16,995 nucleotides of DNA. Source: a virus. The translations under genes were made by a program, and so were the position numbers. Under the pieces are notes generated by a model. It did not search any database, was not told the origin of the DNA, and saw only the letters and a list, made by a program, of their open reading frames with translations. Location: the UHGV virus genome UHGV-1578124. The stretch is one strand, 5' to 3'. Of this stretch, positions 1 to 16,878 are shown in pieces. Position 1 is the stretch's first letter. Every line of letters starts with the position of its first letter.

Positions 1-50
1 ATCAAATCAACTAATATATAAGCCCATAACCCGAAAGGGAAGGGCAATCC

Positions 51-90
51 CTAAAACGCTCTATAACGCTCTATAACGCTCTATAACGGC
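51..90. repeat. four tandem 10-bp units CTA(A/T)AACG(C/G)(T/C)
   Basis: Read directly: ctaaaacgct ctataacgct ctataacgct ctataacggc, head to tail with 10-bp period. Confidence 0.75.
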
Positions 91-259
91 TTATCAACTC
101 AACTTAAGCAATCATATTAACCCACTCTTAAAAGCCCTTTATAGAGCTTACTATAGCCTTAAAAGAATCTTATAAGGGTATAAGCTTTATCATCTCGTTA
201 GTTATCTTGTGAACTACTAAAAAGGGCTTGATAGTGTCTATTAAGTATGTTATATGGGC

Positions 260-299
260 TATAAAGTTACGTAAAAGGAGTTATAAAGTTACGTAAAAG
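260..299. repeat. 18-bp direct repeat TATAAAGTTACGTAAAAG x2, each with the 8-bp palindrome TTACGTAA
   Basis: Identical copies at 260-277 and 282-299 (22-bp period); TTACGTAA is self-complementary. Confidence 0.75.
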
Positions 300-365
300 C
301 TAGCCCCCTTAACATTTCTTTAACAAAATCTTAACAATCCCTACATAGTTATGCTTATTAGCAAC

Positions 366-415
366 TTGTTAGCACCTTGTTAAATCTCTGTTAAGACTAC
401 GTTACAACCTTGTTA
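366..415. repeat. phased array of five (T/C)TGTTA-type hexamers at 11-bp spacing
   Basis: Hexamers start at 366, 377, 388, 399 (ACGTTA variant) and 410. Confidence 0.6.
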
Positions 416-608
416 GGCTCTTTGAAGTCCCTATATAAGCCCCTGTAAAGGTCTATAAAGAGCTATACAGACAGTTGGGGTATAGATACTGGGAAGAACC
501 TTAGAAGAGGCTACATAGAGCTATACAGGGCTTTTAAGAGGGCTGTTTAGAGAATCACTGAGAAAGGTAGGGAACTATAGACCAAGAGATAGTGACCATG
601 TTAATAGA

Positions 609-818
609 TTGTTAAACATGTTGAGAACTTAATAGACACTTGTTAATAATCTTAACAAAATAACTTTTAAATTTAACATGTTAGGGACTTGTTAGCATCT
701 TGTTATACCCTTGTAAGAACTGTTAAACTCTTGTTACATCCTTGTTAGAACTGTTAAGGGATTGTTAAGAACTATGGAGACTTGTTAGAGACTTGTTAGA
801 GTTGTAAAGAAATTGTTA
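609..818. repeat. helically phased array of at least 14 (T/C)TGTTA(R) hexamers, 9-11 bp apart
   Basis: Starts at 609, 619, 640, then 678, 689, 700, 711, 720, 731, 742, 751, 762, 782, 793, 802, 813 (TTGTTA, CTGTTA or TTGTAA variants). Confidence 0.7.
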
Positions 819-1416
819 ATGATATTTTAAGATTTTGCAAAGGGGATGTTACAGAGCTGTTAAGGGCTACCAAGCAGATATACACCCTTTGTAGATATTT
901 TTCAGATACTCCCAAGAACCTAAAAAGTGACCTACCTAGTCTATTTTATAAAAATTTTATAGAACTGAATAACTATCTATACACTATCTTCTATAAAACA
1001 GGTAATAACAGGCTTATAAGATATCTTGTTAGTAACGTGTTAGACCTTGTAGGATAAGCCTTTACAGGGAATACCTGTTTAGTGCTATATAACAGTCTAT
1101 ATAGAGGCTTAGTTGACCCTAGTGAACCATCTATAGAGGGTATCATCCTTAACATAGAGATTAAGATGGATATAGGGGCTTCTAAGGGGCTATGGAGGAG
1201 CTAGGAAGGTAATTGTATAGGTGTGGAAGAGGGCTTGTTAGAGAGCTTTATAGAGGGCTATTTAGAAGGAGCTATATAGTTTCACTAGATAGGGACTAAG
1301 AGGCTATATAGATACTATATAATACTATATAGAGAGTATGCTTAGATAGGTTGTTGAAGAGGGTATTGATATTTTATCACATGATATGGTGACCCAAGAT
1401 GAACGGAGTGAATCCA

Positions 1417-1453
1417 AATTTTATAAAAATTATAAAGCCCCAATTAAGGGGCT
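1417..1453 (-). terminator. intrinsic terminator for the minus-strand operon ending at 1463
   Basis: Hairpin AGCCCC (1436-1441) / GGGGCT (1448-1453), loop AATTAA; on the minus strand it is followed by a U-rich tract (plus 1417-1435 is A/T-rich). Confidence 0.55.
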
Positions 1454-1462
1454 GTGTAGTCC

Positions 1463-6730: not shown

Positions 6731-7195
6731 TTACTTTGGATATACCGCGTCAAGATAAATCTTCGCTTCCATTCTACGTCTGTTTGTCAGACCTTTAGAA
6801 GCAACTTTCTGACCGTTGATGGTTACCTTATTCCACCACTGCATAGCTTCTGCACAGCCAACTTTGTTACCAGCATTGTGACGCTTCATGAAGGTTGATT
6901 CCTTCATAGCCCCAATACCGATGTTGTAGGTTTCAATAACCAGTGCGTCAAATTCATTCTGGGTAGTTGGAGCATTGATAGCTTTGTTCACAGCTACTAC
7001 AAACTTCTCAACATCAGCAAGTAGATAACTGTTAGCTTGGGCTTCAGTGATTTTCATACCCATCTTGACAGGTTGACCATTGATACGGATTGTACCATAA
7101 CCAATTGTAGGAATACCAGCAGAGTCTTTGTAGGCTTCTAAACGAAGCCCCTCAAAGAACTTGATAGCTTCCAATCCTTGAGGGGATAATTGCAT
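6731..7195 (-). CDS. endolysin, GH24 (T4/P22-type) lysozyme
   Basis: 154 aa; N-terminal FEGLRLEAYKDSAGIPTIGYGT block carries the E...D...T catalytic pattern and resembles P22 gp19-type lysozymes from memory; GGAGG 6 nt upstream of ATG. Confidence 0.85.
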   Translation of the reverse strand: MQLSPQGLEAIKFFEGLRLEAYKDSAGIPTIGYGTIRINGQPVKMGMKITEAQANSYLLADVEKFVVAVNKAINAPTTQNEFDALVIETYNIGIGAMKESTFMKRHNAGNKVGCAEAMQWWNKVTINGQKVASKGLTNRRRMEAKIYLDAVYPK

Positions 7196-7197
7196 TT

Positions 7198-8082
7198 TTA
7201 ACCTCCTACTGCGTTAACCACTACAGTAGCTGGGTTTGAAGTAACACTTCCACCTGCTCCAGTAACTACACATACATAGCTTCCTGCATCACCAGCAGTC
7301 GTAGTATTCTCTTTGGTGTAGGTTGCTGCTGTAGCACCAGAGATTTCTACATTATCTTTCTTCCACTGGTAACCTGTAGCTCCGGTTGCAACAATATCAA
7401 GAGTCAGTGTGTCACCTTCAGTGATTTCTTGGTTTGCTGGCTGTTTAGTGATTACTGGAAGTGCATTCACAGTAACTGTTGCAGCATCTGAAGTGACAGT
7501 TGCACCACCAGCACCAGTAACTACACAGGTGTAAGACCCAGCATCAGCAGGGGTTACGTTTGTTTTAGTGTATGTTGCAGAAGTTGCACCAGAGATGTTA
7601 GAAGCACCCTTCTTCCACTGGTAACCAGTTGCATTTGTAGCAACAACTGTCAAGGTTAGAGTACCACCCTCATTAACAGTTTGGTTAGTTGGCTGCGTAG
7701 TGATAGCTGGTGGCACAACTGCATCAATCAGTTTAGCATTCAGCATTGAGAAAGGTTTAACTCTTGCCAGCCATTCACAATAAACTGTATCAACGTCTTT
7801 ACCATTGATAATTGCATATTGTAAGTCCATGAAGAAGTCAGAAGTTCTCATTTGAGCACCTACAGAGTATAGGAGTTCTTCAGAGAATGGAACTGTGTAG
7901 CTTGGGGTGTAGTTGAAATCGGTAACCTCAGCAATGTCTGACTCAGGCCACGGAGAGCTATATGTCAGTGGTAGCACAGCTTCTTGATACGTTCTGAAGT
8001 CGTATCTCTTACCAGCTTTAACATTCGCAATAAAAACTTTTACGAACTCTTTAAAATCTGGATATGTTTTTGCTTTAATCAT
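7198..8082 (-). CDS. protein with ~120-aa N-terminal domain plus two tandem Ig-like domains
   Basis: Two ~90-aa repeats (TLTLTVVATNATGYQWKK...AGSYTCVVTGAGG and TLTLDIVATGATGYQWKK...AGSYVCVVTGAGG) typical of phage Ig-like domains; N-terminal domain is paralogous to 8079-8447. Confidence 0.7.
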   Translation of the reverse strand: MIKAKTYPDFKEFVKVFIANVKAGKRYDFRTYQEAVLPLTYSSPWPESDIAEVTDFNYTPSYTVPFSEELLYSVGAQMRTSDFFMDLQYAIINGKDVDTVYCEWLARVKPFSMLNAKLIDAVVPPAITTQPTNQTVNEGGTLTLTVVATNATGYQWKKGASNISGATSATYTKTNVTPADAGSYTCVVTGAGGATVTSDAATVTVNALPVITKQPANQEITEGDTLTLDIVATGATGYQWKKDNVEISGATAATYTKENTTTAGDAGSYVCVVTGAGGSVTSNPATVVVNAVGG

Positions 8083-9081: not shown

Positions 9082-9308
9082 TTACCTGTTCTCCTGCGGT
9101 TAATAATCTTGCTGCAATAGAGAAATGAAGCAAATTCACTGGAAGAAACCATTAACACTTGTTCACTAGATTGAGCGATAGCTCTGAAATACATACCAGT
9201 TAAAGCATCATAGTGCTTATTCTTACCAATCGAAGCTATATACCCATGACTCTTTGCAGTTTGGTACAAATCAATAATATCTGTGATTTCTAATTGGGAG
9301 CTACACAT
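9075..9308 (-). CDS. hypothetical protein (77 aa), first gene of the minus-strand block
   Basis: ATG with AGAGGA 5 nt upstream; lies next to the divergent intergenic region. Confidence 0.55.
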   Translation of the reverse strand: MCSSQLEITDIIDLYQTAKSHGYIASIGKNKHYDALTGMYFRAIAQSSEQVLMVSSSEFASFLYCSKIINRRRTGKC

Positions 9309-9550
9309 AAGTAATCCTCTTGTCGTCTATAATTTTGAAAATATAGGTACAAACCAATTTCAGAGGATGTATAGTGGATTGCTTCCACACGTTTTGATTC
9401 CTTACAGTGATTGGTATTATTACCCTTTTTCTTCTTTGTTAGTTTTCTCATTTAGTCTCCTTTGTAGATAAAGCAGACCTACAGCTTTAAGTAAGATGGT
9501 ACAGTAATCCATACAACAAGTCAAGAACTATTGCAACCTAAAAATTTTAC

Positions 9551-9702: not shown

Positions 9703-10074
9703 ATGACCAAAAGAACAAACAAAGGCCAGTTTAAAAAAGGTCAATCTGGTAACCCTTCTGGGAGACCAAAAGGTTCACGTAACAAGAGTTCTCTTGTAAA
9801 AGCTCAACTAACCATTGACAACTCAGCAGAGTTTGCTGCAAAGTTATTTGAAGCAATTGTTACAAGGGATGCTACAAAGCTGGCAGAGTTTGGACTCAAG
9901 CCTGATGAAGTCAATTTGAAGTCGATGATGGAAGCTGGTAAAACTATCATGACTCACTCAGCAGGTGAGATGAAAGCAATTGCAGCAGATGTTAAAGGTG
10001 GTGGTGAAAAGGGTGGAGAGAAACCACAAGACAACAAACCAACGTTCTCTGCTGTAGCAACTCTGAAGAAATAA
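9703..10074 (+). CDS. phage protein with N-terminal GQSGNPSGRPKG motif
   Basis: GGAGG 6 nt upstream of ATG; the basic glycine-rich motif is one I associate with a conserved phage protein family (recalled as DUF5681), not verified. Confidence 0.7.
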   Translation: MTKRTNKGQFKKGQSGNPSGRPKGSRNKSSLVKAQLTIDNSAEFAAKLFEAIVTRDATKLAEFGLKPDEVNLKSMMEAGKTIMTHSAGEMKAIAADVKGGGEKGGEKPQDNKPTFSAVATLKK

Positions 10075-10085
10075 TTTAAAAAGGT

Positions 10086-10114
10086 GTTGACAGACTTTAT
10101 TGGTTACTTTAGAG
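10086..10114 (+). promoter_or_regulatory. sigma70-like promoter TTGACA-17-TAGAGT
   Basis: -35 TTGACA 10086-10091 and -10 TAGAGT 10109-10114; overlaps inverted repeat GACAGACT/AGTCTGTC (10089-10122). Confidence 0.45.
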
Positions 10115-10152
10115 TCTGTCTCATCAACAACAATGAGAGAAGAGAGAGTATT

Positions 10153-11568
10153 ATGAGCGAATTATTTAACCACGCAAAATTACATGCTGGTTTGACTGAA
10201 AATGGTGCTGTTAACCATCTGACCTCAATGTCTGCCTTGGTAGACTTTTATAAGGCTGCTGGTTCAAGCCGTAACTACCCAGAGACTCTACCAAATCTGT
10301 TTTACAAAGCTCTGCGAGAAGATATCGATGTAGCGGTTCGAATCTTACTTCATATGCGAGATGCACGAGAAGGTATGGGAGAACGTAAAGCATTCAGAAC
10401 TGTCCTCTCAGAATCTATCAGAACCAACATACTTGATGAGTTCCAAGTTCTGCGTATCATGGCTAAGATTTCTGAACTAGGTCGTTATGATGACTTCAAA
10501 ATCTTCGTAGGTACTCGTTACGAGACTGATGCTTTCAAGCACATTGAGCAAGGATTGTTAGACCCAAATACTTCAGCGTTAGCTGCTAAGTGGTTGCCAA
10601 GGGTTAAGAAGCGTCACATGAATTTTGTAAAGCGTTTCTGCAAGTTTGCAAATCTAAGCCAGAAAGAGTATCGTCTGATGTTATCAGCACTGTCAGATAC
10701 CGTAGAGCAAAAGATTTCTGCAAATGAGTTTGGTGAGATTGATTACAGCAAGCTTCCTTCACTGGCTGCTGCACGTTATCAGAAATTGTTCACACGAAAA
10801 GGTGGAGAACGTTATGCAGAGTATGTAAAAGCTCTGACAGAGGGTACTACCAAGATTAACGCTGGTGCTGTTTACCCATATGATATCACCAAAGCTGTGA
10901 AGTACGGTCGTAGTGAAGTGGCTAATGAGCAATGGAAAGCACTGCCAAACTGGATGAAGGATGGTGAAAACATTCTTTGCATGACTGACGTATCAGGCTC
11001 TATGACGTGTGAACGTCACGGTTCTGTAGACGCTCTTGATATTGGTGTATCTTTGGCGTTATACGTCGCAGAACGCAATACAGGGTGTTTTAAAGATGAG
11101 TTAATGGTTTACTCCACAAATCCATTCTTTATCACTCTAAGTGGCTCTCTGAAGAATCGTATGGCTCAGGTCATGTCACATGTAGAGTATGGTTCAACAA
11201 ACCTTCAAGCTGCTTTTGACAGGATTCTTGAAATTGGTAAAAGAAATAACTTGACTCAAGATGCAATGCCACGTAAGCTTATCATCTTCTCTGACATGCA
11301 GTTTAACTCTGTTGATGGTCAGCGTGGTAATACTAACTTCGAAGCAATTCGTCGTAAGTATGAAGAATCAGGTTATGAAATGCCTCAGTTGGTATTCTGG
11401 TATCTGGCAAATCGTGGTGGTAACTGCGAAGTGTCTATTAAGGATAACGGAGTAGCAATGGTTTCAGGGTTCTCTCCAGCTACATTAAAGGCTCTACTTG
11501 GTGGTGAGAAGTTTGACCCAATCAGCGTAATGCTAAAAGCAGTAATGTCTGAACGTTACGATTGGTAA
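10153..11568 (+). CDS. vWA-domain protein with ~270-aa N-terminal helical domain
   Basis: ATG (MSELFNH...) with GAGAGAG upstream; the track ORF starts earlier at 10084. MIDAS-like D-V-S-G-S-M near residue 280, then downstream T and D positions consistent with a vWA fold. Confidence 0.75.
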   Translation: MSELFNHAKLHAGLTENGAVNHLTSMSALVDFYKAAGSSRNYPETLPNLFYKALREDIDVAVRILLHMRDAREGMGERKAFRTVLSESIRTNILDEFQVLRIMAKISELGRYDDFKIFVGTRYETDAFKHIEQGLLDPNTSALAAKWLPRVKKRHMNFVKRFCKFANLSQKEYRLMLSALSDTVEQKISANEFGEIDYSKLPSLAAARYQKLFTRKGGERYAEYVKALTEGTTKINAGAVYPYDITKAVKYGRSEVANEQWKALPNWMKDGENILCMTDVSGSMTCERHGSVDALDIGVSLALYVAERNTGCFKDELMVYSTNPFFITLSGSLKNRMAQVMSHVEYGSTNLQAAFDRILEIGKRNNLTQDAMPRKLIIFSDMQFNSVDGQRGNTNFEAIRRKYEESGYEMPQLVFWYLANRGGNCEVSIKDNGVAMVSGFSPATLKALLGGEKFDPISVMLKAVMSERYDW

Positions 11569-11733: not shown

Positions 11734-11813
11734 CTCCGTTTAGCTCAGTTTGGTTTAGCAGCACTTGCTTTGGGAGCAAGGGGTCGAGGGTTCAAATCCT
11801 TCAACGGAGACCA
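11734..11813 (+). tRNA. tRNA-Pro (anticodon TGG)
   Basis: Acceptor CTCCGTT/AACGGAG; anticodon stem CTTGC/GCAAG, loop TTTGGGA; T-arm GAGGG-TTCAAAT-CCTTC; discriminator A; CCA encoded. Confidence 0.85.
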
Positions 11814-11819
11814 AATTAT

Positions 11820-11897
11820 GTTCCAGTAGACAAATTGGTAAAGTCACCACACTTTCAATGTGGAGTTTTGAGGGTTCAAGTCCCTTCTGGAACGCCA
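11820..11897 (+). tRNA. tRNA-Glu (anticodon TTC)
   Basis: Acceptor GTTCCAG/CTGGAAC; anticodon stem CCACA/TGTGG, loop CTTTCAA; T-loop TTCAAGT; discriminator G; CCA encoded. Confidence 0.8.
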
Positions 11898-11901
11898 AAT
11901 T

Positions 11902-11974
11902 TGACAGAAGACCAAATACAGCAAACAACTTTTACTTTTCGCGCATAGAAAACATAAAAAGCTTGGTCTGGTCA
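11902..11974 (+). ncRNA. structured spacer element E1 (bulged two-helix family)
   Basis: Outer helix TGAC (11902-05) / GTCA (11971-74); inner helix AGACCAA (11909-15) / TTGGTCT (11963-69); unpaired AGA opposite G. Confidence 0.55.
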
Positions 11975-11982
11975 TTAAGAAT

Positions 11983-12059
11983 CGCGGGTATAGAGAAAGG
12001 GCGTCTCACATGTCTCATTAGCATGGCAACGGTTGGTTCGACTCCAACACCCGCCTCCA
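11983..12059 (+). tRNA. tRNA with CAT anticodon (Met, Ile2 or initiator)
   Basis: Acceptor CGCGGGT/ACCCGCC with C1-C72 mismatch; D-stem GAGA/TCTC; anticodon stem CATGT/GCATG, loop CTCATTA; T-arm GTTGG-TTCGACT-CCAAC; discriminator U; CCA encoded. Confidence 0.65.
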
Positions 12060-12062
12060 AAT

Positions 12063-12130
12063 TTACAGAAGGCCGTTTACAGCAATTCAAACAATTTTAT
12101 CGGAAAATTAAAATGAATACGGTCTGGTAA
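12063..12130 (+). ncRNA. structured spacer element E2
   Basis: Outer TTAC (12063-66) / GTAA (12127-30); inner AGGCCGT (12070-76) / ACGGTCT (12119-25) with one G-U pair; AGA opposite G. Confidence 0.55.
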
Positions 12131-12140
12131 TGTTAAACAT

Positions 12141-12217
12141 GGTTAGGAAGCACATAAGGCATGTGCGGTCGGCTGTTAACCGAATGGCACAGGGTTCGAA
12201 TCCCTGACTAACCGCCA
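12141..12217 (+). tRNA. tRNA-Asn (anticodon GTT)
   Basis: Acceptor GGTTAGG/ACTAACC; D-stem GCAC/GTGC; anticodon loop CTGTTAA; T-arm CAGGG-TTCGAAT-CCCTG; discriminator G; CCA. Confidence 0.8.
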
Positions 12218-12284
12218 AATTTGGGAGAGAAGCGATTGCTCACCGATTTGTAAGGTGCAAGTCCTTAGCCTGAATAGAATAAAA

Positions 12285-12373
12285 TGCGTCGTTATCCCGT
12301 AGATGGAAGCGGTGGTGACTGTAAATCACTTGTCATTACGACTCGGTAGGTTCGACTCCTTCACGGCGCACCA
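12285..12373 (+). tRNA. tRNA-Tyr (anticodon GTA), type II
   Basis: Acceptor GCGTCGT/ACGGCGC; anticodon stem GGTGA/TCACT, loop CTGTAAA; long variable arm with GTC/GAC stem; T-loop TTCGACT; discriminator A; CCA. Confidence 0.8.
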
Positions 12374-12379
12374 AATAAA

Positions 12380-12456
12380 GGTTATGTAGTTTAACTGGTC
12401 AAAATACTCCCCTGTCACGGGAGATGATGAGGGTTCGAATCCCTTCGTAACCGCCA
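12380..12456 (+). tRNA. tRNA-Asp (anticodon GTC)
   Basis: Acceptor GGTTATG/CGTAACC; anticodon stem CTCCC/GGGAG, loop CTGTCAC; T-arm GAGGG-TTCGAAT-CCCTT; discriminator G; CCA. Confidence 0.85.
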
Positions 12457-12514
12457 AATTTGAGAGGGCTTTTTAGCCCCTCCCTTAAAGAGTTCTTTCG
12501 AGTATTCTTTAAAG

Positions 12515-12594
12515 GAGCAGAAGACCAAATTCAGCAAGCAACAAAAATATTTCAAGCCAATTTAATTTGAAAAATTTAAAACTTGGTCTGGTTC
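12515..12594 (+). ncRNA. structured spacer element E3
   Basis: Outer GAGC (12515-18) / GTTC (12591-94) with one G-U; inner AGACCAA (12522-28) / TTGGTCT (12583-89); AGA opposite G. Confidence 0.5.
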
Positions 12595-12602
12595 CAACAA
12601 TT

Positions 12603-12734
12603 TTACAGAAGACCGTTTACAGCAAACAATAAACAATCTATTTCTCTTATAAAGAAAAGGCGAAGGTTCGAATCCTTCACACGTTACGGCGTGTTGGTGT
12701 AATGGAAGCACTTAAGATAAATACGGTCTGGTAA
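12603..12734 (+). ncRNA. structured spacer element E4 with internal tRNA-like module
   Basis: Outer TTAC (12603-06) / GTAA (12731-34); inner AGACCGT (12610-16) / ACGGTCT (12723-29). Apical region 12662-12711 holds a canonical T-arm, an ACACG/CGTGT hairpin and a D-arm-like GTG-TAATGGAAG-CAC. Confidence 0.55.
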
Positions 12735-12738
12735 TCCT

Positions 12739-12871
12739 CTTTGCAGTGACTTATGGAGCTAATATGTCGTCCCATGAGTGCCGATGAGTTTCTTGAGCAT
12801 GATTCTAGATTAGCTTACTAAGAGACAACTCTACAAACCCTTTAGCAAGGTTTGCGTAGGTTACTGCAAAG
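12739..12871 (+). ncRNA. candidate structured RNA closed by a long-range helix
   Basis: CTTTGCAGTGAC (12739-50) pairs with GTTACTGCAAAG (12860-71). Interior holds two overlapping mini-ORFs (12764-12787 MSSHECR, 12784-12813 MSFLSMILD), the first with GGAG 6 nt upstream. Confidence 0.35.
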
Positions 12872-12881
12872 ATGATTTAAT

Positions 12882-12957
12882 GGAAGTGTAGCAGAATGGT
12901 GATGCGGCAGACTTTTAATCTGACAGGCGACGGGTTCGAATCCCTCCACTTCTACCA
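12882..12957 (+). tRNA. tRNA-Lys (anticodon TTT)
   Basis: Acceptor GGAAGTG/CACTTCT; anticodon stem CAGA/TCTG, loop CTTTTAA; weak T-arm (GACGG...CCCTC); discriminator A; CCA. Confidence 0.7.
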
Positions 12958-12962
12958 AATTC

Positions 12963-13029
12963 GCCCTTAACTGAAGAACACATGCGCGGCTGGAGACACC
13001 CACTCAATCAGTTCTTCTACAAAGGGCAA
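12963..13029 (+). ncRNA. large imperfect hairpin
   Basis: GCCCTT + GAAGAAC (12963-79) pair with GTTCTTC + AAGGGC (13011-29) around a 4x4 internal loop; ~31-nt apical loop; no U-tract follows. Confidence 0.4.
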
Positions 13030-13037
13030 CTTATTAC

Positions 13038-13114
13038 GGTTCAGTCGCAGATAAGGTAATGCAAGGGTTTCATAAGCCCTATGAATGTGGGTTCGATTCC
13101 CACTTGAACCTCCA
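13038..13114 (+). tRNA. tRNA-Met (anticodon CAT; could be Ile2 or initiator)
   Basis: Acceptor GGTTCAG/TTGAACC; anticodon stem AGGGT/GCCCT, loop TTCATAA; T-arm GTGGG-TTCGATT-CCCAC; discriminator U; CCA. Confidence 0.75.
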
Positions 13115-13116
13115 AT

Positions 13117-13191
13117 TGTGGGTTAGCATAAATGGTAATGCAAACGGCTGATAACCGTTAGAAGAGGGTTCGATACCCTCACCTACAACCA
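13117..13191 (+). tRNA. tRNA-Ile (anticodon GAT)
   Basis: Acceptor TGTGGGT/ACCTACA; D-stem GCAT/ATGC; anticodon stem AACGG/CCGTT, loop CTGATAA; T-arm GAGGG-TTCGATA-CCCTC; discriminator A; CCA. Confidence 0.8.
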
Positions 13192-13206
13192 AATTCAATA
13201 AAGTTG

Positions 13207-13235
13207 TTGATATTGAGATGTGACTACTTTATAGT
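13207..13235 (+). promoter_or_regulatory. sigma70-like promoter TTGATA-17-TATAGT
   Basis: Hexamers at 13207-13212 and 13230-13235; would drive the ~200-nt non-tRNA segment before tRNA-Arg(TCT). Confidence 0.5.
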
Positions 13236-13241
13236 AACCTT

Positions 13242-13403
13242 AGTTTTCGTTAGCGTAGCGTCTATTTTGCAAACTTAAAAATAAATGCAAACGATAATGT
13301 TTTTCTGGCAGTAGCTTAATAGGCTAAACACCAGTGAGGTCTTCCAACCCCTCATCAAAGAATTTGGCGTACTAGCCCACGGTATGATTAATAAGGTGGG
13401 CAT
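13242..13403 (+). ncRNA. candidate small RNA / transcribed spacer
   Basis: Lies downstream of the 13207 promoter; hairpins TAGC/GCTA (13312-26), TGAGG/CCTCA (13334-53), GCCCAC/GTGGGC (13375-13401); no tRNA fold and no ORF. Confidence 0.3.
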
Positions 13404-13440
13404 CTTTAAGGGCTTTCTAAGAGAGTCTTTAAAGATTAAT

Positions 13441-13517
13441 GCACCCTTAGTTCAATTGGATAGAGCAACGGTCTTCTAAATCGTTAGTTACAGGTTCGAA
13501 TCCTGTAGGGTGTGCCA
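13441..13517 (+). tRNA. tRNA-Arg (anticodon TCT)
   Basis: Acceptor GCACCCT/AGGGTGT; D-stem GTTC/GAGC; anticodon stem ACGGT/ATCGT, loop CTTCTAA; T-arm ACAGG-TTCGAAT-CCTGT; discriminator G; CCA. Confidence 0.85.
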
Positions 13518-13618
13518 ATTAGTTAGCAGATTACTTAGACGACCTTAGCGGGTCTTCCTGTAGGGAGGTGGTCTGTATCTCATGTTTTCCAGAACATGTA
13601 AATAATCTGAGAAGGGGC

Positions 13619-13647
13619 TTGACAGTGTTGTGATAATACGGTAAGCT
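13619..13647 (+). promoter_or_regulatory. sigma70-like promoter TTGACA-17-TAAGCT
   Basis: Hexamers at 13619-13624 and 13642-13647; the block TTGACAgTGTTGTGATA...TAAG matches the 11587 element. Confidence 0.45.
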
Positions 13648-13659
13648 TCGAATTATAGT

Positions 13660-13742
13660 ATGGGACGATGTTAAGACACTAAGGCATGTGCGTAAGCCTC
13701 CAAAACTTACTCAAAGGGGTTCGATTCCTCCGTCCCATGCCA
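13660..13742 (+). tRNA. tRNA-Trp (anticodon CCA), atypical 80 nt
   Basis: Acceptor ATGGGAC/GTCCCAT (perfect); anticodon loop CTCCAAA; T-loop TTCGATT; discriminator G; CCA. There are about 7 extra nt between the acceptor stem and the D-arm. Confidence 0.6.
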
Positions 13743-13755
13743 AAGTCTCATTAGG

Positions 13756-13843
13756 GGTAGGTAGCGGCTAATGGTAGCCAAACTGTCTTGAAAACAGTTG
13801 CCACTGTAGAGATACGGTGAGGGTTCGACTCCTTTACTTACCG
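13756..13843 (+). tRNA. tRNA-Ser (anticodon TGA), type II
   Basis: Acceptor GGTAGGT/ACTTACC; anticodon stem ACTGT/ACAGT, loop CTTGAAA; variable-arm hairpin CTGTA-GAGA-TACGG; T-loop TTCGACT; discriminator G; 3' tail reads CCT, not CCA. Confidence 0.75.
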
Positions 13844-13923
13844 CCTAATAAGATTTAATTCCCGCGCTCGTCGAACAAGCTCGGTTTTTACTCGTGTATT
13901 GGCGTACACGGCACGACTATAAA

Positions 13924-13938
13924 ACACCTAGTAGGTGT
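13924..13938. promoter_or_regulatory. 15-bp palindrome ACACCTA-g-TAGGTGT (candidate protein-binding site)
   Basis: Perfect 7-bp inverted arms around a central G, in the 250-nt tRNA-free spacer 13847-14093. Confidence 0.4.
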
Positions 13939-14093
13939 CACGGAGAAGAGATAGTATCAAGCTCTCCAAAGGTTCTAGTCACCGGATTGAATAAGACTAT
14001 ATAAAGACTGTTTAGGTCTTTTTAGAGAATTGCTGAGGCATTTGATACCATTGTTGCTTTGGCGTCTTAGCAGTTCTCTACAAAGATTTAATG

Positions 14094-14171
14094 GGAGATT
14101 GACGGTAATTGGTAAACCTACCATCCTTAGAAGTTGGTGTTTGAGGGTTCGAATCCCTTGTCTCCTACCAA
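14094..14171 (+). tRNA. tRNA with anticodon TAG (Leu codon CUA), type I
   Basis: Acceptor GGGAGAT/GTCTCCT (G-U pairs at both ends); anticodon stem CCATC/GTTGG, loop CTTAGAA; T-arm GAGGG-TTCGAAT-CCCTT; discriminator A; CCA; no long variable arm. Confidence 0.6.
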
Positions 14172-14178
14172 ATTAATG

Positions 14179-14254
14179 CAGGTGTAGCAAAATGGTTATG
14201 CGGCTGACTCTTAATCAGTAAGACGATGGGTTCAATTCCCTCCACCTGTACCAA
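14179..14254 (+). tRNA. tRNA-Lys (anticodon CTT)
   Basis: Acceptor GCAGGTG/CACCTGT; anticodon stem GCTGA/TCAGT, loop CTCTTAA; same weak T-arm as Lys(TTT); discriminator A; CCA. Confidence 0.7.
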
Positions 14255-14260
14255 ATATCG

Positions 14261-14336
14261 GGGATGTAGTTTACATGGTTAAAACATAAGTTTTGCAAAC
14301 TTAAGTACAGGGTTCAATTCCCTGCTTCTCCACCAA
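14261..14336 (+). tRNA. tRNA-Ala (anticodon TGC)
   Basis: Acceptor GGGGATG/CTTCTCC with a G3-U70 wobble (the known Ala identity pair); D-stem GTTT/AAAC; anticodon stem TAAGT/ACTTA, loop TTTGCAA; T-arm CAGGG-TTCAATT-CCCTG; discriminator A; CCA. Confidence 0.85.
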
Positions 14337-14342
14337 TTAGTG

Positions 14343-14417
14343 CATCCATAGTTTAAACGGGAAAATTACAGTCTTCCAAACTGAGGTTGAGGGTTCGATT
14401 CCCTCTGGATGCTCCAA
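14343..14417 (+). tRNA. tRNA-Gly (anticodon TCC)
   Basis: Acceptor GCATCCA/TGGATGC (perfect); anticodon loop CTTCCAA; T-arm GAGGG-TTCGATT-CCCTC; discriminator U (as in Gly tRNAs); CCA. Confidence 0.85.
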
Positions 14418-14423
14418 ATAATG

Positions 14424-14500
14424 CTGCTTTCGTATAATTGGCTATTACACATCCCTTGTAAGGATGGAGATGCGGGTTCAAGTCCTGTGAGCAGCACCAA
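14424..14500 (+). tRNA. tRNA-Thr (anticodon TGT)
   Basis: Acceptor GCTGCTT/GAGCAGC; anticodon stem CATCC/GGATG, loop CTTGTAA; T-loop TTCAAGT; discriminator A; CCA. Confidence 0.8.
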
Positions 14501-14504
14501 TTTG

Positions 14505-14588
14505 AGGTCAAGTGAAAGGCCGCTTGAGTCAACTGAGACCGTAGCAAATTCCACGGAGTTGAGTTAGCGGCACAACTTCAGACCTCTT
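14505..14588 (+). ncRNA. nested-helix structured element between tRNA-Thr and tRNA-Val
   Basis: Closing helix GAGGTC (14505-10) / GACCTC (14583-88), second helix GCCGC/GCGGC, internal direct repeat TTGAGT x2; followed by a CTTTTAAAG motif. Confidence 0.4.
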
Positions 14589-14594
14589 TTAAAG

Positions 14595-14669
14595 CTCGCT
14601 TAGTTTATACGGTAAAGCCCCATCCTTACAAGTTGGTGAAGAAGGTTCAAGTCCTTCAGCGAGTACCAA
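14595..14669 (+). tRNA. tRNA-Val (anticodon TAC)
   Basis: Acceptor GCTCGCT/AGCGAGT; D-stem GTTT/AAGC; anticodon stem CCATC/GTTGG, loop CTTACAA; T-arm GAAGG-TTCAAGT-CCTTC; discriminator A; CCA. Confidence 0.8.
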
Positions 14670-14670
14670 G

Positions 14671-14748
14671 TTCCAGTATCCCAATTGGCAGAGGATGCAA
14701 GCTCAAACCTTGTATTAGTGACGGTTCGAATCCGTCTTGGAACACCAA
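14671..14748 (+). tRNA. tRNA with anticodon CAA (Leu codon UUG), type I
   Basis: Acceptor GTTCCAG/TTGGAAC; anticodon stem GCAAG/CTTGT, loop CTCAAAC; T-arm GACGG-TTCGAAT-CCGTC; discriminator A; CCA; 75 nt. Confidence 0.6.
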
Positions 14749-14762
14749 ATTAGGAGATTCCT

Positions 14763-14975
14763 ATGAAGCCTTATGGTAGACATGGTAAAGTTGAAATTGC
14801 AAGTTGTGGTTGCTGTGCTTCTCACGATGGTGAAGAAGATTACTACAAGTGGCGTACAGACCATCGTAGACGCTTTCTCAGAAGAGATAAGAAGAAAGCT
14901 AGACAGGAATCTCAAAAGAATATTGCAGAATTAGTTCAAACGGATAGAGCAGCAGCCTACGAAGTTGTTTGTTAG
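14763..14975 (+). CDS. small basic cysteine-containing protein (70 aa)
   Basis: AGGAG 5 nt upstream of ATG; contains C-G-C-C; its last ~17 codons run through the 5' two-thirds of tRNA-Arg(ACG), so the true 3' end is uncertain. Confidence 0.45.
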   Translation: MKPYGRHGKVEIASCGCCASHDGEEDYYKWRTDHRRRFLRRDKKKARQESQKNIAELVQTDRAAAYEVVC

Positions 14976-15001
14976 GGGTTCGAATCCCTTATTCTGCACC
15001 A
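14925..15001 (+). tRNA. tRNA-Arg (anticodon ACG)
   Basis: Acceptor GCAGAAT/ATTCTGC (perfect); D-stem GTTC/GAGC; anticodon stem GCAGC/GTTGT, loop CTACGAA; T-arm AGGGG-TTCGAAT-CCCTT; discriminator A; CCA. Confidence 0.85.
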
Positions 15002-15019
15002 ATTTTAGAAGGTAATTAT

Positions 15020-15247
15020 ATGCGTAAACTCATTATTGAAAGGCATAAAGATGCTGACAAGATTGCAACAACACAAGTTGGGGACACTGACTTCATTCTT
15101 GTAGGTTGGAAATGTGACCCAATAGCAGTTATGAAGGTTGTTCATGGTTTTGCAGGAATTGAATTTAATCAAATCATATTTGAAACGCTATTACCAGAAA
15201 ATCAGGATACGTGTAATAACGCATATGTCCTGACAAGAGTTCGTTAG
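15020..15247 (+). CDS. small protein (75 aa), paralog of 15292-15519
   Basis: AGAAGG ~7 nt upstream of ATG (MRKLIIERH...); the track ORF starts earlier inside the tRNA. Shares blocks with the next gene (GDT-FI-VGWK-DP, FAG-E, QVIFET-LPEN-DTCNNAY-LTRV). Confidence 0.65.
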   Translation: MRKLIIERHKDADKIATTQVGDTDFILVGWKCDPIAVMKVVHGFAGIEFNQIIFETLLPENQDTCNNAYVLTRVR

Positions 15248-15273
15248 GGGTTCGAATCCCTTATTCTGCACCA
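15244..15273 (+). pseudogene. tRNA 3' fragment (T-arm + acceptor 3' strand + CCA)
   Basis: A 31-nt stretch (GTTAGGGGTTCGAATCCCTTATTCTGCACCA, from 15243) is identical to the 3' end of tRNA-Arg(ACG) at 14971-15001; no matching 5' acceptor strand, D-arm or anticodon arm upstream. Confidence 0.65.
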
Positions 15274-15291
15274 AATTTAAAAGGGTAACTT

Positions 15292-15519
15292 ATGTTTAAA
15301 CTCATAGTTGAAAAACACCCAGAAGATGACAAGCTTGAAACAGGGAGATTTGGAGATACTTTCTTTATCAGAGTTGGCTGGAAAGCTGACCCATTAGAAG
15401 TTAGAAAGATTGTCTACAACTTTGCTGGTTTGGAATTAAAGCAAGTCATCTTTGAAACAATGTTGCCAGAAAATAAAGATACATGCAATAACGCATATAT
15501 TCTTACAAGAGTTAGTTAG
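15292..15519 (+). CDS. small protein (75 aa), paralog of 15020-15247
   Basis: AAAGGG upstream of ATG; stop codon TAG (15517-19) overlaps the first nucleotides of tRNA-Gln(TTG). Confidence 0.65.
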   Translation: MFKLIVEKHPEDDKLETGRFGDTFFIRVGWKADPLEVRKIVYNFAGLELKQVIFETMLPENKDTCNNAYILTRVS

Positions 15520-15593
15520 GGGATTAGTTTACAAGGTTAAAACCTCGGTCTTTGAAATCGAAGAAGTTGGTTCAATTCCAACATCCCCCGCCA
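15518..15593 (+). tRNA. tRNA-Gln (anticodon TTG)
   Basis: Acceptor AGGGGAT/ATCCCCC with unpaired 1-72; D-stem GTTT/AAAC; anticodon stem TCGGT/ATCGA, loop CTTTGAA; T-arm GTTGG-TTCAATT-CCAAC; discriminator G; CCA. Confidence 0.75.
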
Positions 15594-15595
15594 AT

Positions 15596-15674
15596 GCTCC
15601 ATTACTCCAATTGGCAGAGAGGCCAGACTTAAAATCTGTGTTATGTATCGGTTCGAATCCGATATGGAGTACCA
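15596..15674 (+). tRNA. tRNA with anticodon TAA (Leu codon UUA), type I
   Basis: Acceptor GCTCCAT/ATGGAGT; anticodon stem CAGA/TCTG, loop CTTAAAA; T-arm ATCGG-TTCGAAT-CCGAT; discriminator A; CCA; 76 nt with a 7-nt variable region. Confidence 0.6.
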
Positions 15675-15680
15675 AATATT

Positions 15681-15756
15681 AGCAGTGTAGCATAACTGGC
15701 AATGCTCCAGCCTCTGAAGCTGAAAGATTAAGGTTCAAATCCTTACGCTGCTGCCA
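15681..15756 (+). tRNA. tRNA-Gln (anticodon CTG)
   Basis: Acceptor AGCAGTG/CGCTGCT; D-stem GCAT/ATGC; anticodon loop CTCTGAA; T-arm TAAGG-TTCAAAT-CCTTA; discriminator G; CCA. Confidence 0.75.
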
Positions 15757-15787
15757 CTTCTAAGGGTTCTTACGAGAGTCCTTAAAT

Positions 15788-15864
15788 GTGGCCTTATCAT
15801 AAACGGATAATGACCCATGCTGTGAACATGGTCTATACGGGTTCGATTCCCGTAGGTCACCCCA
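15788..15864 (+). tRNA. tRNA-His (anticodon GTG)
   Basis: Acceptor GTGGCCT/AGGTCAC; D-stem TCAT/ATGA; anticodon stem CCATG/CATGG, loop CTGTGAA; T-arm ACGGG-TTCGATT-CCCGT; discriminator C; CCA. Position -1 is T, not the usual encoded G. Confidence 0.8.
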
Positions 15865-15871
15865 ATTCAAT

Positions 15872-15947
15872 AGCTCAATTAGCTTATATGGTTAAAGCGC
15901 GTGTCTGAAAAACATGAGAACAGGGTTCAAATCCCGATGGGCTACCA
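15872..15947 (+). tRNA. tRNA-Phe (anticodon GAA)
   Basis: Acceptor AGCTCAA/ATGGGCT; anticodon stem CGTGT/ACATG, loop CTGAAAA; T-loop TTCAAAT with a weak 3-4 bp T-stem; discriminator A; CCA. Confidence 0.65.
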
Positions 15948-15963
15948 ATTTTATAGGTGCATA

Positions 15964-16698
15964 ATGAAAGAGATGACAGGACAAGGTAAAGAGATTTTCA
16001 GTCTCCTTAAATCCGGTAACGGGTTCTCTAACCCTCTTATTACTGGTGCAGCAGTTCTTGGTGGTACAGTTGCCGCTTCTCAGTCATTAGTAACTTCTAT
16101 TGGTTCTGTATCAGACCCAGCTACCCAGCAAATTCTTATTGCTGCTGGCTTGACAACTGCCTTACTAAGCAGCTTTACAACAAGCCTTGGTAGCACCACT
16201 TCAACGACAACCACTTTAACTGACTATGGACAGAAGTCTGTAGATGAGTTTTCACAACGTATGCAAGTAGCTAAAGGTTACTCTAACGTTATGGGAGCAG
16301 CAGGTGAACAAGTCGGTTGTACACCGTTTAGTGGAATCATGGGAGTTGCTACAGAGTACGGTAACAAAGCTATGGATTTGATTAATACATCCATAGACGC
16401 TGTAAATGGCGTTCTAAGCGATTTACAAGATGCGATTGATAAAGGACTAGACACCATCTCTGAACTCGCTACACAGGCTGTTACAGTGATTAATGAGGGT
16501 ATGGCAAAGATTACCGCCTACGCTAATGAAGTGGCTCAGATGATTGCAGATGAAGCAGCCCTGATTGCTGACTACCTTAAAACGAATATTAATGGTTTTC
16601 TTGCTAATGTCTTACCAGATTGGTTTGATGATGCTTGTAAAACTGGTGTGATTGATACAATCGCAACTCCAGAGATGAAAGATGCTCTAAACAAATAA
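15964..16698 (+). CDS. hypothetical Ser/Thr/Ala/Gly-rich protein (244 aa)
   Basis: The track ORF starts at 15901 inside tRNA-Phe. First ATG after the tRNA (MKEMTGQ...) has AGGTG 4 nt upstream. Confidence 0.6.
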   Translation: MKEMTGQGKEIFSLLKSGNGFSNPLITGAAVLGGTVAASQSLVTSIGSVSDPATQQILIAAGLTTALLSSFTTSLGSTTSTTTTLTDYGQKSVDEFSQRMQVAKGYSNVMGAAGEQVGCTPFSGIMGVATEYGNKAMDLINTSIDAVNGVLSDLQDAIDKGLDTISELATQAVTVINEGMAKITAYANEVAQMIADEAALIADYLKTNINGFLANVLPDWFDDACKTGVIDTIATPEMKDALNK

Positions 16699-16701
16699 TT
16701 T

Positions 16702-16794
16702 GGAAGATTAACCCTAAAAGGTAAGGGAGTAGTTTGCTAAACTGCCAGTAACCGAGAAATCGGCGTACCAGTTCAAGTCTGGTATCTTCCTCCA
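16702..16794 (+). tRNA. tRNA-Ser (anticodon GCT), type II
   Basis: Acceptor GGAAGAT/ATCTTCC (perfect); D-stem CCC/GGG; anticodon stem GTAGT/ACTGC, loop TTGCTAA; variable-arm hairpin CCGA-GAAA-TCGG; T-arm ACCAG-TTCAAGT-CTGGT; discriminator U; CCA. Confidence 0.8.
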
Positions 16795-16801
16795 AATTAA
16801 T

Positions 16802-16878
16802 GTGTCGGTGGCAGAAATGGATTATGCGCCTGTCTGCAAAACAGGTATATAAGGGTTCAAGTCCCTTCCGATACTCCA
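16802..16878 (+). tRNA. tRNA-Cys (anticodon GCA)
   Basis: Acceptor GTGTCGG/CCGATAC; anticodon stem CCTGT/ACAGG, loop CTGCAAA; T-arm AAGGG-TTCAAGT-CCCTT; discriminator U (as in Cys tRNAs); CCA. Confidence 0.8.

Follow-up and report, generated by a model that had tools for sequence, protein, structure and literature searches.

Helically phased TGTTA sites in a direct terminal repeat inferred for a Felix O1-like phage: a possible protein docking platform at the genome ends

Introduction

Why should a phage genome carry a long non-coding region in which one short word recurs about once per turn of the DNA helix? The question is raised by the first 1,460 bp of UHGV virus genome UHGV-1578124, of which one strand of 16,995 nucleotides was analyzed (this whole stretch is referred to below as the window). 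A sequence-only reading of this DNA had noted arrays of TTGTTA-type hexamers at 366-818 and had listed an iteron-type replication origin, a partition centromere, a packaging signal and an array for cooperative protein binding as possible functions. Here we place these words within what homology identifies as the direct terminal repeat of a Felix O1-like phage, define the conserved unit and its spacing, and weigh which protein, of phage or of host, would bind them.

Results

Phased TGTTA cores in the non-coding region

The strict word YTGTTAR was found 34 times in the window compared with 17.6 ± 4.4 times in shuffled sequence, a count reached in none of 200 shuffles, and 17 of the 26 copies on the plus strand fell within 1-1460. 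It is the 5-bp core TGT(T/A)A that is informative. On the plus strand of 1-1460 there were 27 such cores, far above the 4.9 ± 2.0 (maximum 13) obtained in 2,000 dinucleotide-preserving shuffles of this region, and they were present where the sequence-only reading had placed its arrays. Thirteen pairs of neighbouring cores were exactly 11 bp apart, against 0.017 in the shuffles (maximum 2).

The main array has core starts at 679, 690, 701, 712, 721, 732, 743, 752, 763, 773 (a degenerate slot), 783, 794, 803 and 814, the steps between intact cores being 11, 11, 11, 9, 11, 11, 9, 11, 20, 11, 9 and 11 bp. This 11-11-9 rhythm was also recovered by Tandem Repeats Finder as a super-period of 31 bp. 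The 14 copies first reported between 678 and 818 are therefore 13 when the 5-bp core is used, and only eight when the word is read strictly as (T/C)TGTTA(R); likewise, four of the five copies reported at 366-415 are good and the remaining slot reads CGTTA. Smaller sets of plus-strand cores occupy 367-411, 599-641 and 847-858, and three minus-strand copies at 309-336, likewise 11 bp apart, had been overlooked.

Mean core spacing in the arrays was approximately 10.3-10.4 bp (10.4 bp in the main array). Fourier analysis gave a peak at 10.3 bp with a power of 8.7, compared with 3.0 ± 0.9 in shuffled sequence (maximum 8.4), and the main array by itself reached 11.3 of a possible 13. Helical phasing, which the sequence-only reading had put up for refutation against shuffled controls, is significant, and we judge that it was right to take phasing as a sign that a protein would bind cooperatively along one helical face. 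A proposed link to similar words near 9440-9470 did not survive, as 9436 carries a lone copy without any phased partner, within a minus-strand open reading frame (9290-9451); we regard this copy as a chance match.

The phasing does not appear to be there for static curvature. In a wedge model, which is approximate, the array was predicted to bend by 12.8 degrees per 31 bp compared with 17.9 ± 10 degrees in coding DNA, and its end-to-end bend was not above that of shuffled sequence.

The array lies within an inferred direct terminal repeat

The description of the region as non-coding was confirmed: the first 1,460 bp hold no credible gene, the sole open reading frame there encodes 54 amino acids, and most relatives annotate nothing at this place. 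This 1.4-kb gap matched 243 phage records, all of them Felix O1-like (Ounavirinae), the nearest being Shigella phage ESh22 at 95%, and from these matches the source of the window is a Felix O1-like phage nearest to Mooglevirus. Conservation in relatives had also been named beforehand as a test, and the region is kept in more than 240 of them. In the relatives the gap sits between two convergent gene blocks, each closed by a terminator.

The records of several relatives start exactly 37 bp before the match to window position 340 and hold the match twice, and one such record labels it as a terminal repeat. In Pr103Blw a PhageTerm-defined repeat of 581 bp is annotated at both ends, and it aligns end to end with the window from 303 (GCCCCCTTAACATTT) to 871 (GTTAAGGGCTACC). 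In the record of Erwinia phage M7 both ends bear an exact repeat of 444 bp, the boundaries of which are homologous to those in the window. For UAB_Phi87 a repeat of 608 bp was demonstrated by Bal31 digestion and run-off sequencing; boundary mapping in the present work gave 614 bp, and the boundaries are accordingly good to a few bp. From homology to these three relatives with mapped or deposited ends, we infer that 303-871 is a direct terminal repeat of 569 bp, which would place the whole of 366-818 inside it.

Several other kinds of signal were sought in this region. An Rfam scan of 1-1600 gave no match at E values up to 1, promoter-like sites were not in excess (8 compared with 5.0 ± 2.2 expected), the only terminator detected was that of the minus-strand genes, and no IHF consensus was found in the window.

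Of the functions first listed, a packaging signal fits best, as the array is inside the inferred terminal repeat, while an iteron origin and a centromere found no support. An origin in which an initiator binds phased repeats beside an AT-rich unwinding element would account for the helically phased direct repeats and for the AT-rich stretch at approximately 641-678 between two clusters. However, the units here are 11 bp with a 5-bp core and not iterons of 17-22 bp, DnaA boxes numbered 20 compared with 22.5 expected with one weak match only in the region, Pfam detected no initiator domain in the neighbouring genes, and duplication at both genome ends would be unusual for an origin, so that we consider this explanation very improbable. 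A partition centromere would be unlikely for a virulent phage, as relatives of this phage are described to be, and no par-type domains were found in the genes of the window.

Inverted ends of the repeat

The coordinates of the features are collected in Table 1. The sites change orientation between 309-337 (minus strand) and 366-416 (plus strand), and 306-325 and 847-866 (20 nt), at opposite ends of the terminal repeat, make up an inverted repeat with 85% complementarity. As a consequence each physical end of the genome would bear an outward-pointing TGTTA-N6-TGTTAAGGG. In the spacer ahead of the main array the opposite-strand TTAACA at 674-679 shares one base with the first TGTTA of the array (679-683).

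Table 1. Positions of features in the non-coding region of the window and of the candidate small-terminase gene; the repeat is placed by homology.
Feature	Position	Strand	Details and basis
Non-coding flank left of repeat	1-302		Alignment to right end of Pr103Blw; Tandem Repeats Finder
Tandem repeat CTATAACGCT	51-88		3.8 copies, 96% matches; in left flank; Tandem Repeats Finder
Two TATAAAGTTACGTAAAAG copies	259-299		22 bp apart, each with palindrome TTACGTAA; adjoin left repeat boundary
Inferred direct terminal repeat	303-871		569 bp, GCCCCCTTAACATTT to GTTAAGGGCTACC; homology to Pr103Blw and M7
Left-terminal block	309-337	-	Three TGTTAA, 11 bp apart, outward-pointing, starting 7 bp inside the inferred end
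Five-slot array	366-416	+	11-bp steps: 367, 378, 389, 400 (CGTTA), 411
Repeat centre	417-597		Nearly TGTTA-free (lone TGTAA at 444); second words CTATAAAG, CTATACAG, CTTTTAAGAG; conserved in alignment
Short cluster	598-646	+	ATGTTAAT at 598, TTGTTAAA at 609, TGTTG slot at 619, TTGTTAAT at 640
AT-rich spacer	647-677		Opposite-strand TTAACA at 652-657 and 674-679; minus-strand match 652-658
Main array	678-819	+	13 TGT(T/A)A cores and one degenerate slot, 11-11-9 rhythm
Right-terminal pair ATGTTACAGAGCTGTTAAGGG	846-866	+	Outward-pointing; inverted-repeat partner of 306-325
Non-coding flank inside genome left end	872-1460		Alignment, sequence
Conserved word AAGCAGATATACA	872-884		Directly outside right repeat boundary
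Extra TGTTAG copies	1026-1050		In right flank
CTATATAG-type word family	1085-1335		In right flank
Terminator of minus-strand genes	1436-1453		In right flank
DUF5681 protein, candidate small terminase subunit	9703-10074	+	123 amino acids; Pfam PF18932

The terminal copies begin 7-10 bp from both inferred repeat boundaries and point outward, an arrangement which could also serve some other phage protein, either one that protects the ends against host exonucleases or one that acts as a roadblock insulating the convergent transcription units. The position of the repeat, flanked by terminators where two convergent gene blocks meet, would suit a roadblock, and a study of a relative which describes the phage as having no RecBCD inhibitor would suit end protection. 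No candidate for such a protein was found, Pfam detected no DNA-binding domain in the flanking genes, and end protection would not need approximately 25 sites over 550 bp; we consider binding of this kind improbable.

Conservation of the core among relatives

The repeat was extracted from 14 phages, which comprised members of Mooglevirus, Felixounavirus, Suspvirus and Kolesnikvirus and one Pectobacterium phage without an assigned genus. A peak at 10.4-10.5 bp was present in all 11 Felixounavirus, Mooglevirus and Suspvirus repeats (the window and 10 relatives). Minus-strand cores were found at repeat positions 8 and 19 in all 14 phages and a third at position 30 in 13 of them, and the Erwinia and Pectobacterium phages hold the copies at 8 and 19 although most of their repeat could not be aligned.

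Conservation was computed on an alignment of 11 repeats which were 73-96% identical overall. The five core positions had values of 0.97, 0.93, 0.95, 0.84 and 0.98, the six spacer positions values of 0.43-0.73, and the repeat a mean of 0.80, so that the core is the sole conserved part of the 11-bp unit. This pattern across the aligned sequences shows selection on the 5-bp core. All insertions and deletions longer than 1 bp in the alignment were of 11 (three cases), 21-22, 22 or 23 bp. The lengths of the repeats follow 569 + 11n with n = 0, 1, 2, 4 and 5. Palindromic insertions of 21-23 bp (AATTGGTATTGTTACCAATCCC, TAGTTGTGTTTGTAAACAACCAC) were observed in UAB_Phi87, SUSP2, pinkbiff, JLBYU32 and Sf19 at alignment columns 298-319, 411-432 and 489-511, each amounting to approximately two helical turns, and the AATTGGTATTGTTACCAATCCC insertion stands at two different places in different phages.

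A tandem structure that varies in length by steps of 11 bp is also what slippage of an 11-bp or 31-bp unit would produce, and the array could in principle be a by-product without function at a place where only the identity of the two repeat copies matters. Slippage cannot explain why conservation across genera is confined to five bases in every 11, nor why terminal copies persist in Erwinia phages with an otherwise unalignable repeat, nor why insertions of 22-23 bp hold the phase; as two of the insertions are small palindromes that are unrelated, slippage of the unit does not by itself account for the phase rule. We consider a function-free origin extremely improbable. Taken together, the phasing, the conservation of the core, the whole-turn insertions and deletions, the inverted ends and the lack of a predicted bend or of an RNA, promoter, IHF or DnaA signal indicate that the phased cores are probably short protein-binding sites kept to one face of the helix.

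A scan of viral contigs for four TGTTA words at 11-bp spacing returned at least 120 loci. Among the matches listed, nine were Felix O1-like with chains of 5-12, and the other 111 were unrelated, all but one with chains of 4-8; the scan is uninformative on other enteric phages. In Erwinia phage M7 runs of the 8-mer TGTTAAGA with a spacing of 12-13 bp were observed at 624-650 and 784-830, outside the terminal repeat.

Flanking sequences and a second word family

In the virion 1-302 would be the final unique sequence ahead of the right-end copy of the repeat, based on alignment to the right end of Pr103Blw, and in Michonne the plus-strand genes upstream on this side end in a terminator. The TATAAAGTTACGTAAAAG pair which adjoins the left repeat boundary is kept in the Pr103Blw alignment and absent from Erwinia phage M7, and may contribute to the signal for the cut site. 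At the opposite boundary AAGCAGATATACA is a further candidate for such a signal, and a near-match to it was found at the equivalent position in 12 of the 13 relatives searched (GTAGATATACA in the Erwinia phages), GE_vB_BS having none.

A second family of words (CTATAAAG, CTATACAG, GCTATATAG and TATAGAG) was observed at 431-545 and 1085-1335, where it is 10- to 40-fold enriched over the rest of the window. It occupies the repeat centre and the right flank and may be the site for a second protein.

A proposed docking platform for terminase and a candidate small terminase

The explanation which we favour, tentatively and from sequence, is that the phased TGTTA sites form a one-face docking platform for a cooperatively binding protein that marks the genome ends for terminase. 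Approximately 25 short sites, one per helical turn, would form the internal architecture of the repeat of about 569 bp, and with one site per turn a cooperative or ring-shaped protein could line one face of the DNA or wrap the DNA around itself. The outermost, outward-pointing sites would place the same complex symmetrically at both repeat boundaries, where terminase would nick opposite strands of the concatemer, and strand-displacement synthesis from the staggered nicks would then restore the complete repeat on every genome that is packaged. Such a nick-and-fill model of packaging is that of T7-type phages. As the array fills the repeat, the sites stand at or beside the inferred cut sites, the position that would be required of a small-terminase recognition site.

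The likeliest binder would be phage-encoded. A published study of a Felix O1-like phage states that only a large terminase could be identified, with no recognizable small terminase. A candidate in the window is the DUF5681 protein listed in Table 1. Distant homologues of this protein in two unrelated metagenomic phages overlap the start of the large-terminase gene, which is the classic position of a small terminase, and in a marine contig and Rheinheimera phages homologues lie 1.5-2.5 kb upstream of the large-terminase gene. In Michonne the order on the same strand is DUF5681, a Ro60-like gene, a tRNA island, one small open reading frame, large terminase and portal, and thus the tRNA island appears to separate the gene resembling a small-terminase gene from that of the large terminase. 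This gene context in distant phages suggests the DUF5681 protein as the small terminase that has been missing in Felix O1-like phages. The invariant element of the family is an N-terminal arm, KKGQSGNPSGRPKGSRN, which aligns with the HMGA1 AT-hook peptide PRGRPKGSKNKG in a short match (E = 0.11). A ring of such subunits, each touching one helical turn, would be a reasonable model.

A number of points weigh against this explanation. The ends of the phage in the window are placed by homology, and binding and cutting at them are predictions for the whole phage group. The predicted structure of the DUF5681 protein, in which a disordered arm leads into a helical hairpin, is of low confidence (predicted local distance difference test score, pLDDT, of 65), and a Foldseek search of this model against the PDB gave nothing at E values up to 0.001, a small terminase ranking second at E = 2.8. 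An arm of the AT-hook type reads AT-rich minor grooves and would not alone explain the near-invariant G of TGTTA, and no phased array was found in the few kb around the DUF5681 genes at six metagenomic loci and in a Rheinheimera phage. Finally, the host regulator ArcA-P fits the core, spacing and direction of the sites at least as well as any phage protein.

Two groups of neighbouring genes were observed in addition. Directly upstream of 25 tRNA genes (11734-16878) lies a gene for a Ro60/TROVE-like RNA-binding protein (10084-11568, plus strand; DUF2828 and DUF7788), and a preprint on a relative proposes that some of these tRNA genes may be Y-RNA-like partners. A phage lysozyme gene (6731-7195, minus strand) adjoins one for a 294-amino acid protein with two immunoglobulin-like domains (7198-8082, minus strand), which PHROGs labels as a tail or Hoc-like decoration protein.

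Comparison of the sites with ArcA-P operators

The published ArcA-P site consists of direct repeats with a TGTTA core, 11 bp from centre to centre and often three in number, with extra repeats at 11 or 22 bp. The sites in the repeat may be operators for this host redox response regulator, coupling end protection, replication or packaging to the respiratory state of the cell, an explanation which we consider unlikely overall. In a variant of it ArcA-P could be a host accessory factor for terminase, as IHF is at lambda cos.

The published core, direct orientation and 11-bp spacing are exactly those of the array (13 adjacent pairs, though three 9-bp steps interrupt the main array). We scored the DNA with a matrix built from 115 ArcA boxes determined by chromatin immunoprecipitation sequencing (ChIP-seq), in which real boxes score 9.6-21.5 bits. 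In the 569-bp repeat 16 boxes scored 9 bits or higher and six scored 15 bits or higher, compared with 1.0 and 0.055 in shuffled sequence, while no box of 15 bits or higher occurred in the other 16.4 kb of the window. The best phage box, at 23.4 bits, exceeded the best real Escherichia coli box in the set (21.5 bits); boxes in the left-terminal block scored 23.4 and 20.5 bits and that at 598 scored 21.0 bits. Between six and nine such high-scoring boxes were present in each of 14 relatives, always including the terminal ones, against a background of three in approximately 40 kb of other Ounavirinae DNA. The commonest variant of the core is TGTAA in both phage and ArcA sites. All hosts of these phages belong to the Enterobacterales, which carry ArcA. 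Disruption of arcB led to FelixO1 resistance in a Salmonella transposon screen; however, the effect was common to an unrelated phage, and the authors ascribe this group of cross-resistant mutants to RpoS activity.

The bases around the core do not follow ArcA sites. Non-core positions of the plus-strand boxes scored -2.7 bits compared with -2.1 for random sequence and +3.7 for real boxes; the AT-rich surroundings of ArcA sites were found in a minority of boxes only (309 and 320 on the minus strand, 598 and 802 on the plus strand). The base after the core is G in 37% of phage sites and in 3% of ArcA sites, and the base before it is C in 22% and 3%, respectively. Real ArcA sites have two to five repeats and not 13-14; ArcA-P did not use a repeat that was displaced by one extra bp, yet the array has regular 9-bp steps, and the Erwinia phages bear copies at 12-13 bp outside the repeat. 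In addition, isolation and growth of these phages are routine on standard cultures of E. coli, Salmonella and related hosts in the laboratory. In aerated culture ArcA-P is expected to be low.

A phage-encoded ArcA-like protein was sought by tblastn with an ArcA query that matched a Salmonella response regulator at 99.6% identity in that search; no Ounavirinae were among the best 30 of 270 matching records, which mostly resembled host contamination. No paper linking Felix O1 with ArcA was found in the literature. From these scores, it is biochemically fair to predict that ArcA-P binds the few highest-scoring boxes, which does not show that the array evolved for ArcA. The wider proposal would be that a virulent enterobacterial phage family built its genome ends from ArcA sites, and that in the anaerobic gut ArcA-P loads on the ends and concatemer junctions and controls or assists end protection, replication or packaging; we regard it as unlikely, to the same degree as the operator explanation.

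Discussion

Felix O1-like phages are classic tools for the typing of Salmonella and find wide use in biocontrol and in therapy cocktails. In the literature found, their cis-acting packaging signals and small terminase are undescribed, and the likely signal can now be put forward as a defined set of sites. For engineering of the repeat a simple rule would follow, to retain the cores and to limit insertions to multiples of 11 bp. A further prediction is that the oxygen-sensing host regulator ArcA-P should bind the genome ends. If this is true, the processing of phage DNA would be tied to host respiration, which would be relevant to phages intended for the anaerobic gut, and a host two-component regulator would serve the end of a phage chromosome as a structural cofactor; the repeat would then be the densest and highest-scoring cluster of ArcA boxes known.

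Outside this phage family, the nearest analogue is the direct terminal repeat of T7. T7 packages from concatemers with exact repeats, and in it ACCTAAAG is found within the terminal repeat and again, densely arrayed, next to it. The T7 array, however, is mostly outside the 160-bp repeat, consists of an unrelated word and has a period of 13 bp, and so is not in helical phase, whereas the sites described here have a mean period of 10.4 bp and lie within the repeat. The TGTTAAGA runs of M7, with their period of 12-13 bp, are nearer to the T7 array than to the helical phase within the repeat.

At lambda cosB (R sites for gpNu1 and an IHF site) and at SPP1 pac, several sites for an oligomeric small terminase lie beside the cut, aided in lambda by a DNA-bending protein of the host. 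Those sites are few, longer and irregularly spaced, and no IHF consensus accompanies the sites described here. The phage of the window, moreover, would have exact terminal repeats and not the cohesive ends or headful packaging of lambda and SPP1. Iteron origins of plasmids and phages resemble the region in having helically phased direct repeats beside AT-rich DNA, and differ in that the unit here is half the usual length and that there is neither an excess of DnaA boxes nor an adjacent initiator gene.

The E. coli operators for ArcA-P (icdA, astC, acs, paaA and phoH) share with the repeat the TGTTA core, direct orientation, 11-bp spacing, grouping in threes and the TGTAA variant, and matrix scores here are within or above their range. 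The repeat differs from them in its 13-14 consecutive slots, its flanks which are not AT-rich and its 9-bp steps, and also in that it overlaps no promoter and stands at the end of a phage genome.

The closest comparison is with the repeats of UAB_Phi87 (608 bp), Pr103Blw (581 bp) and M7 (444 bp), which have the same homologous sequence, boundaries and convergent gene blocks, and from which the repeat of the window differs in nothing of kind. A terminal repeat is thus already known in Felix O1-like phages, for which the published accounts found give only its existence and length, with no description of a phased TGTTA array, of 11-bp length steps or of inverted ends. The phased architecture, the rule of 11 bp in length and the inverted ends appear to be new, as do the resemblance to ArcA operators and the candidate for a small terminase.

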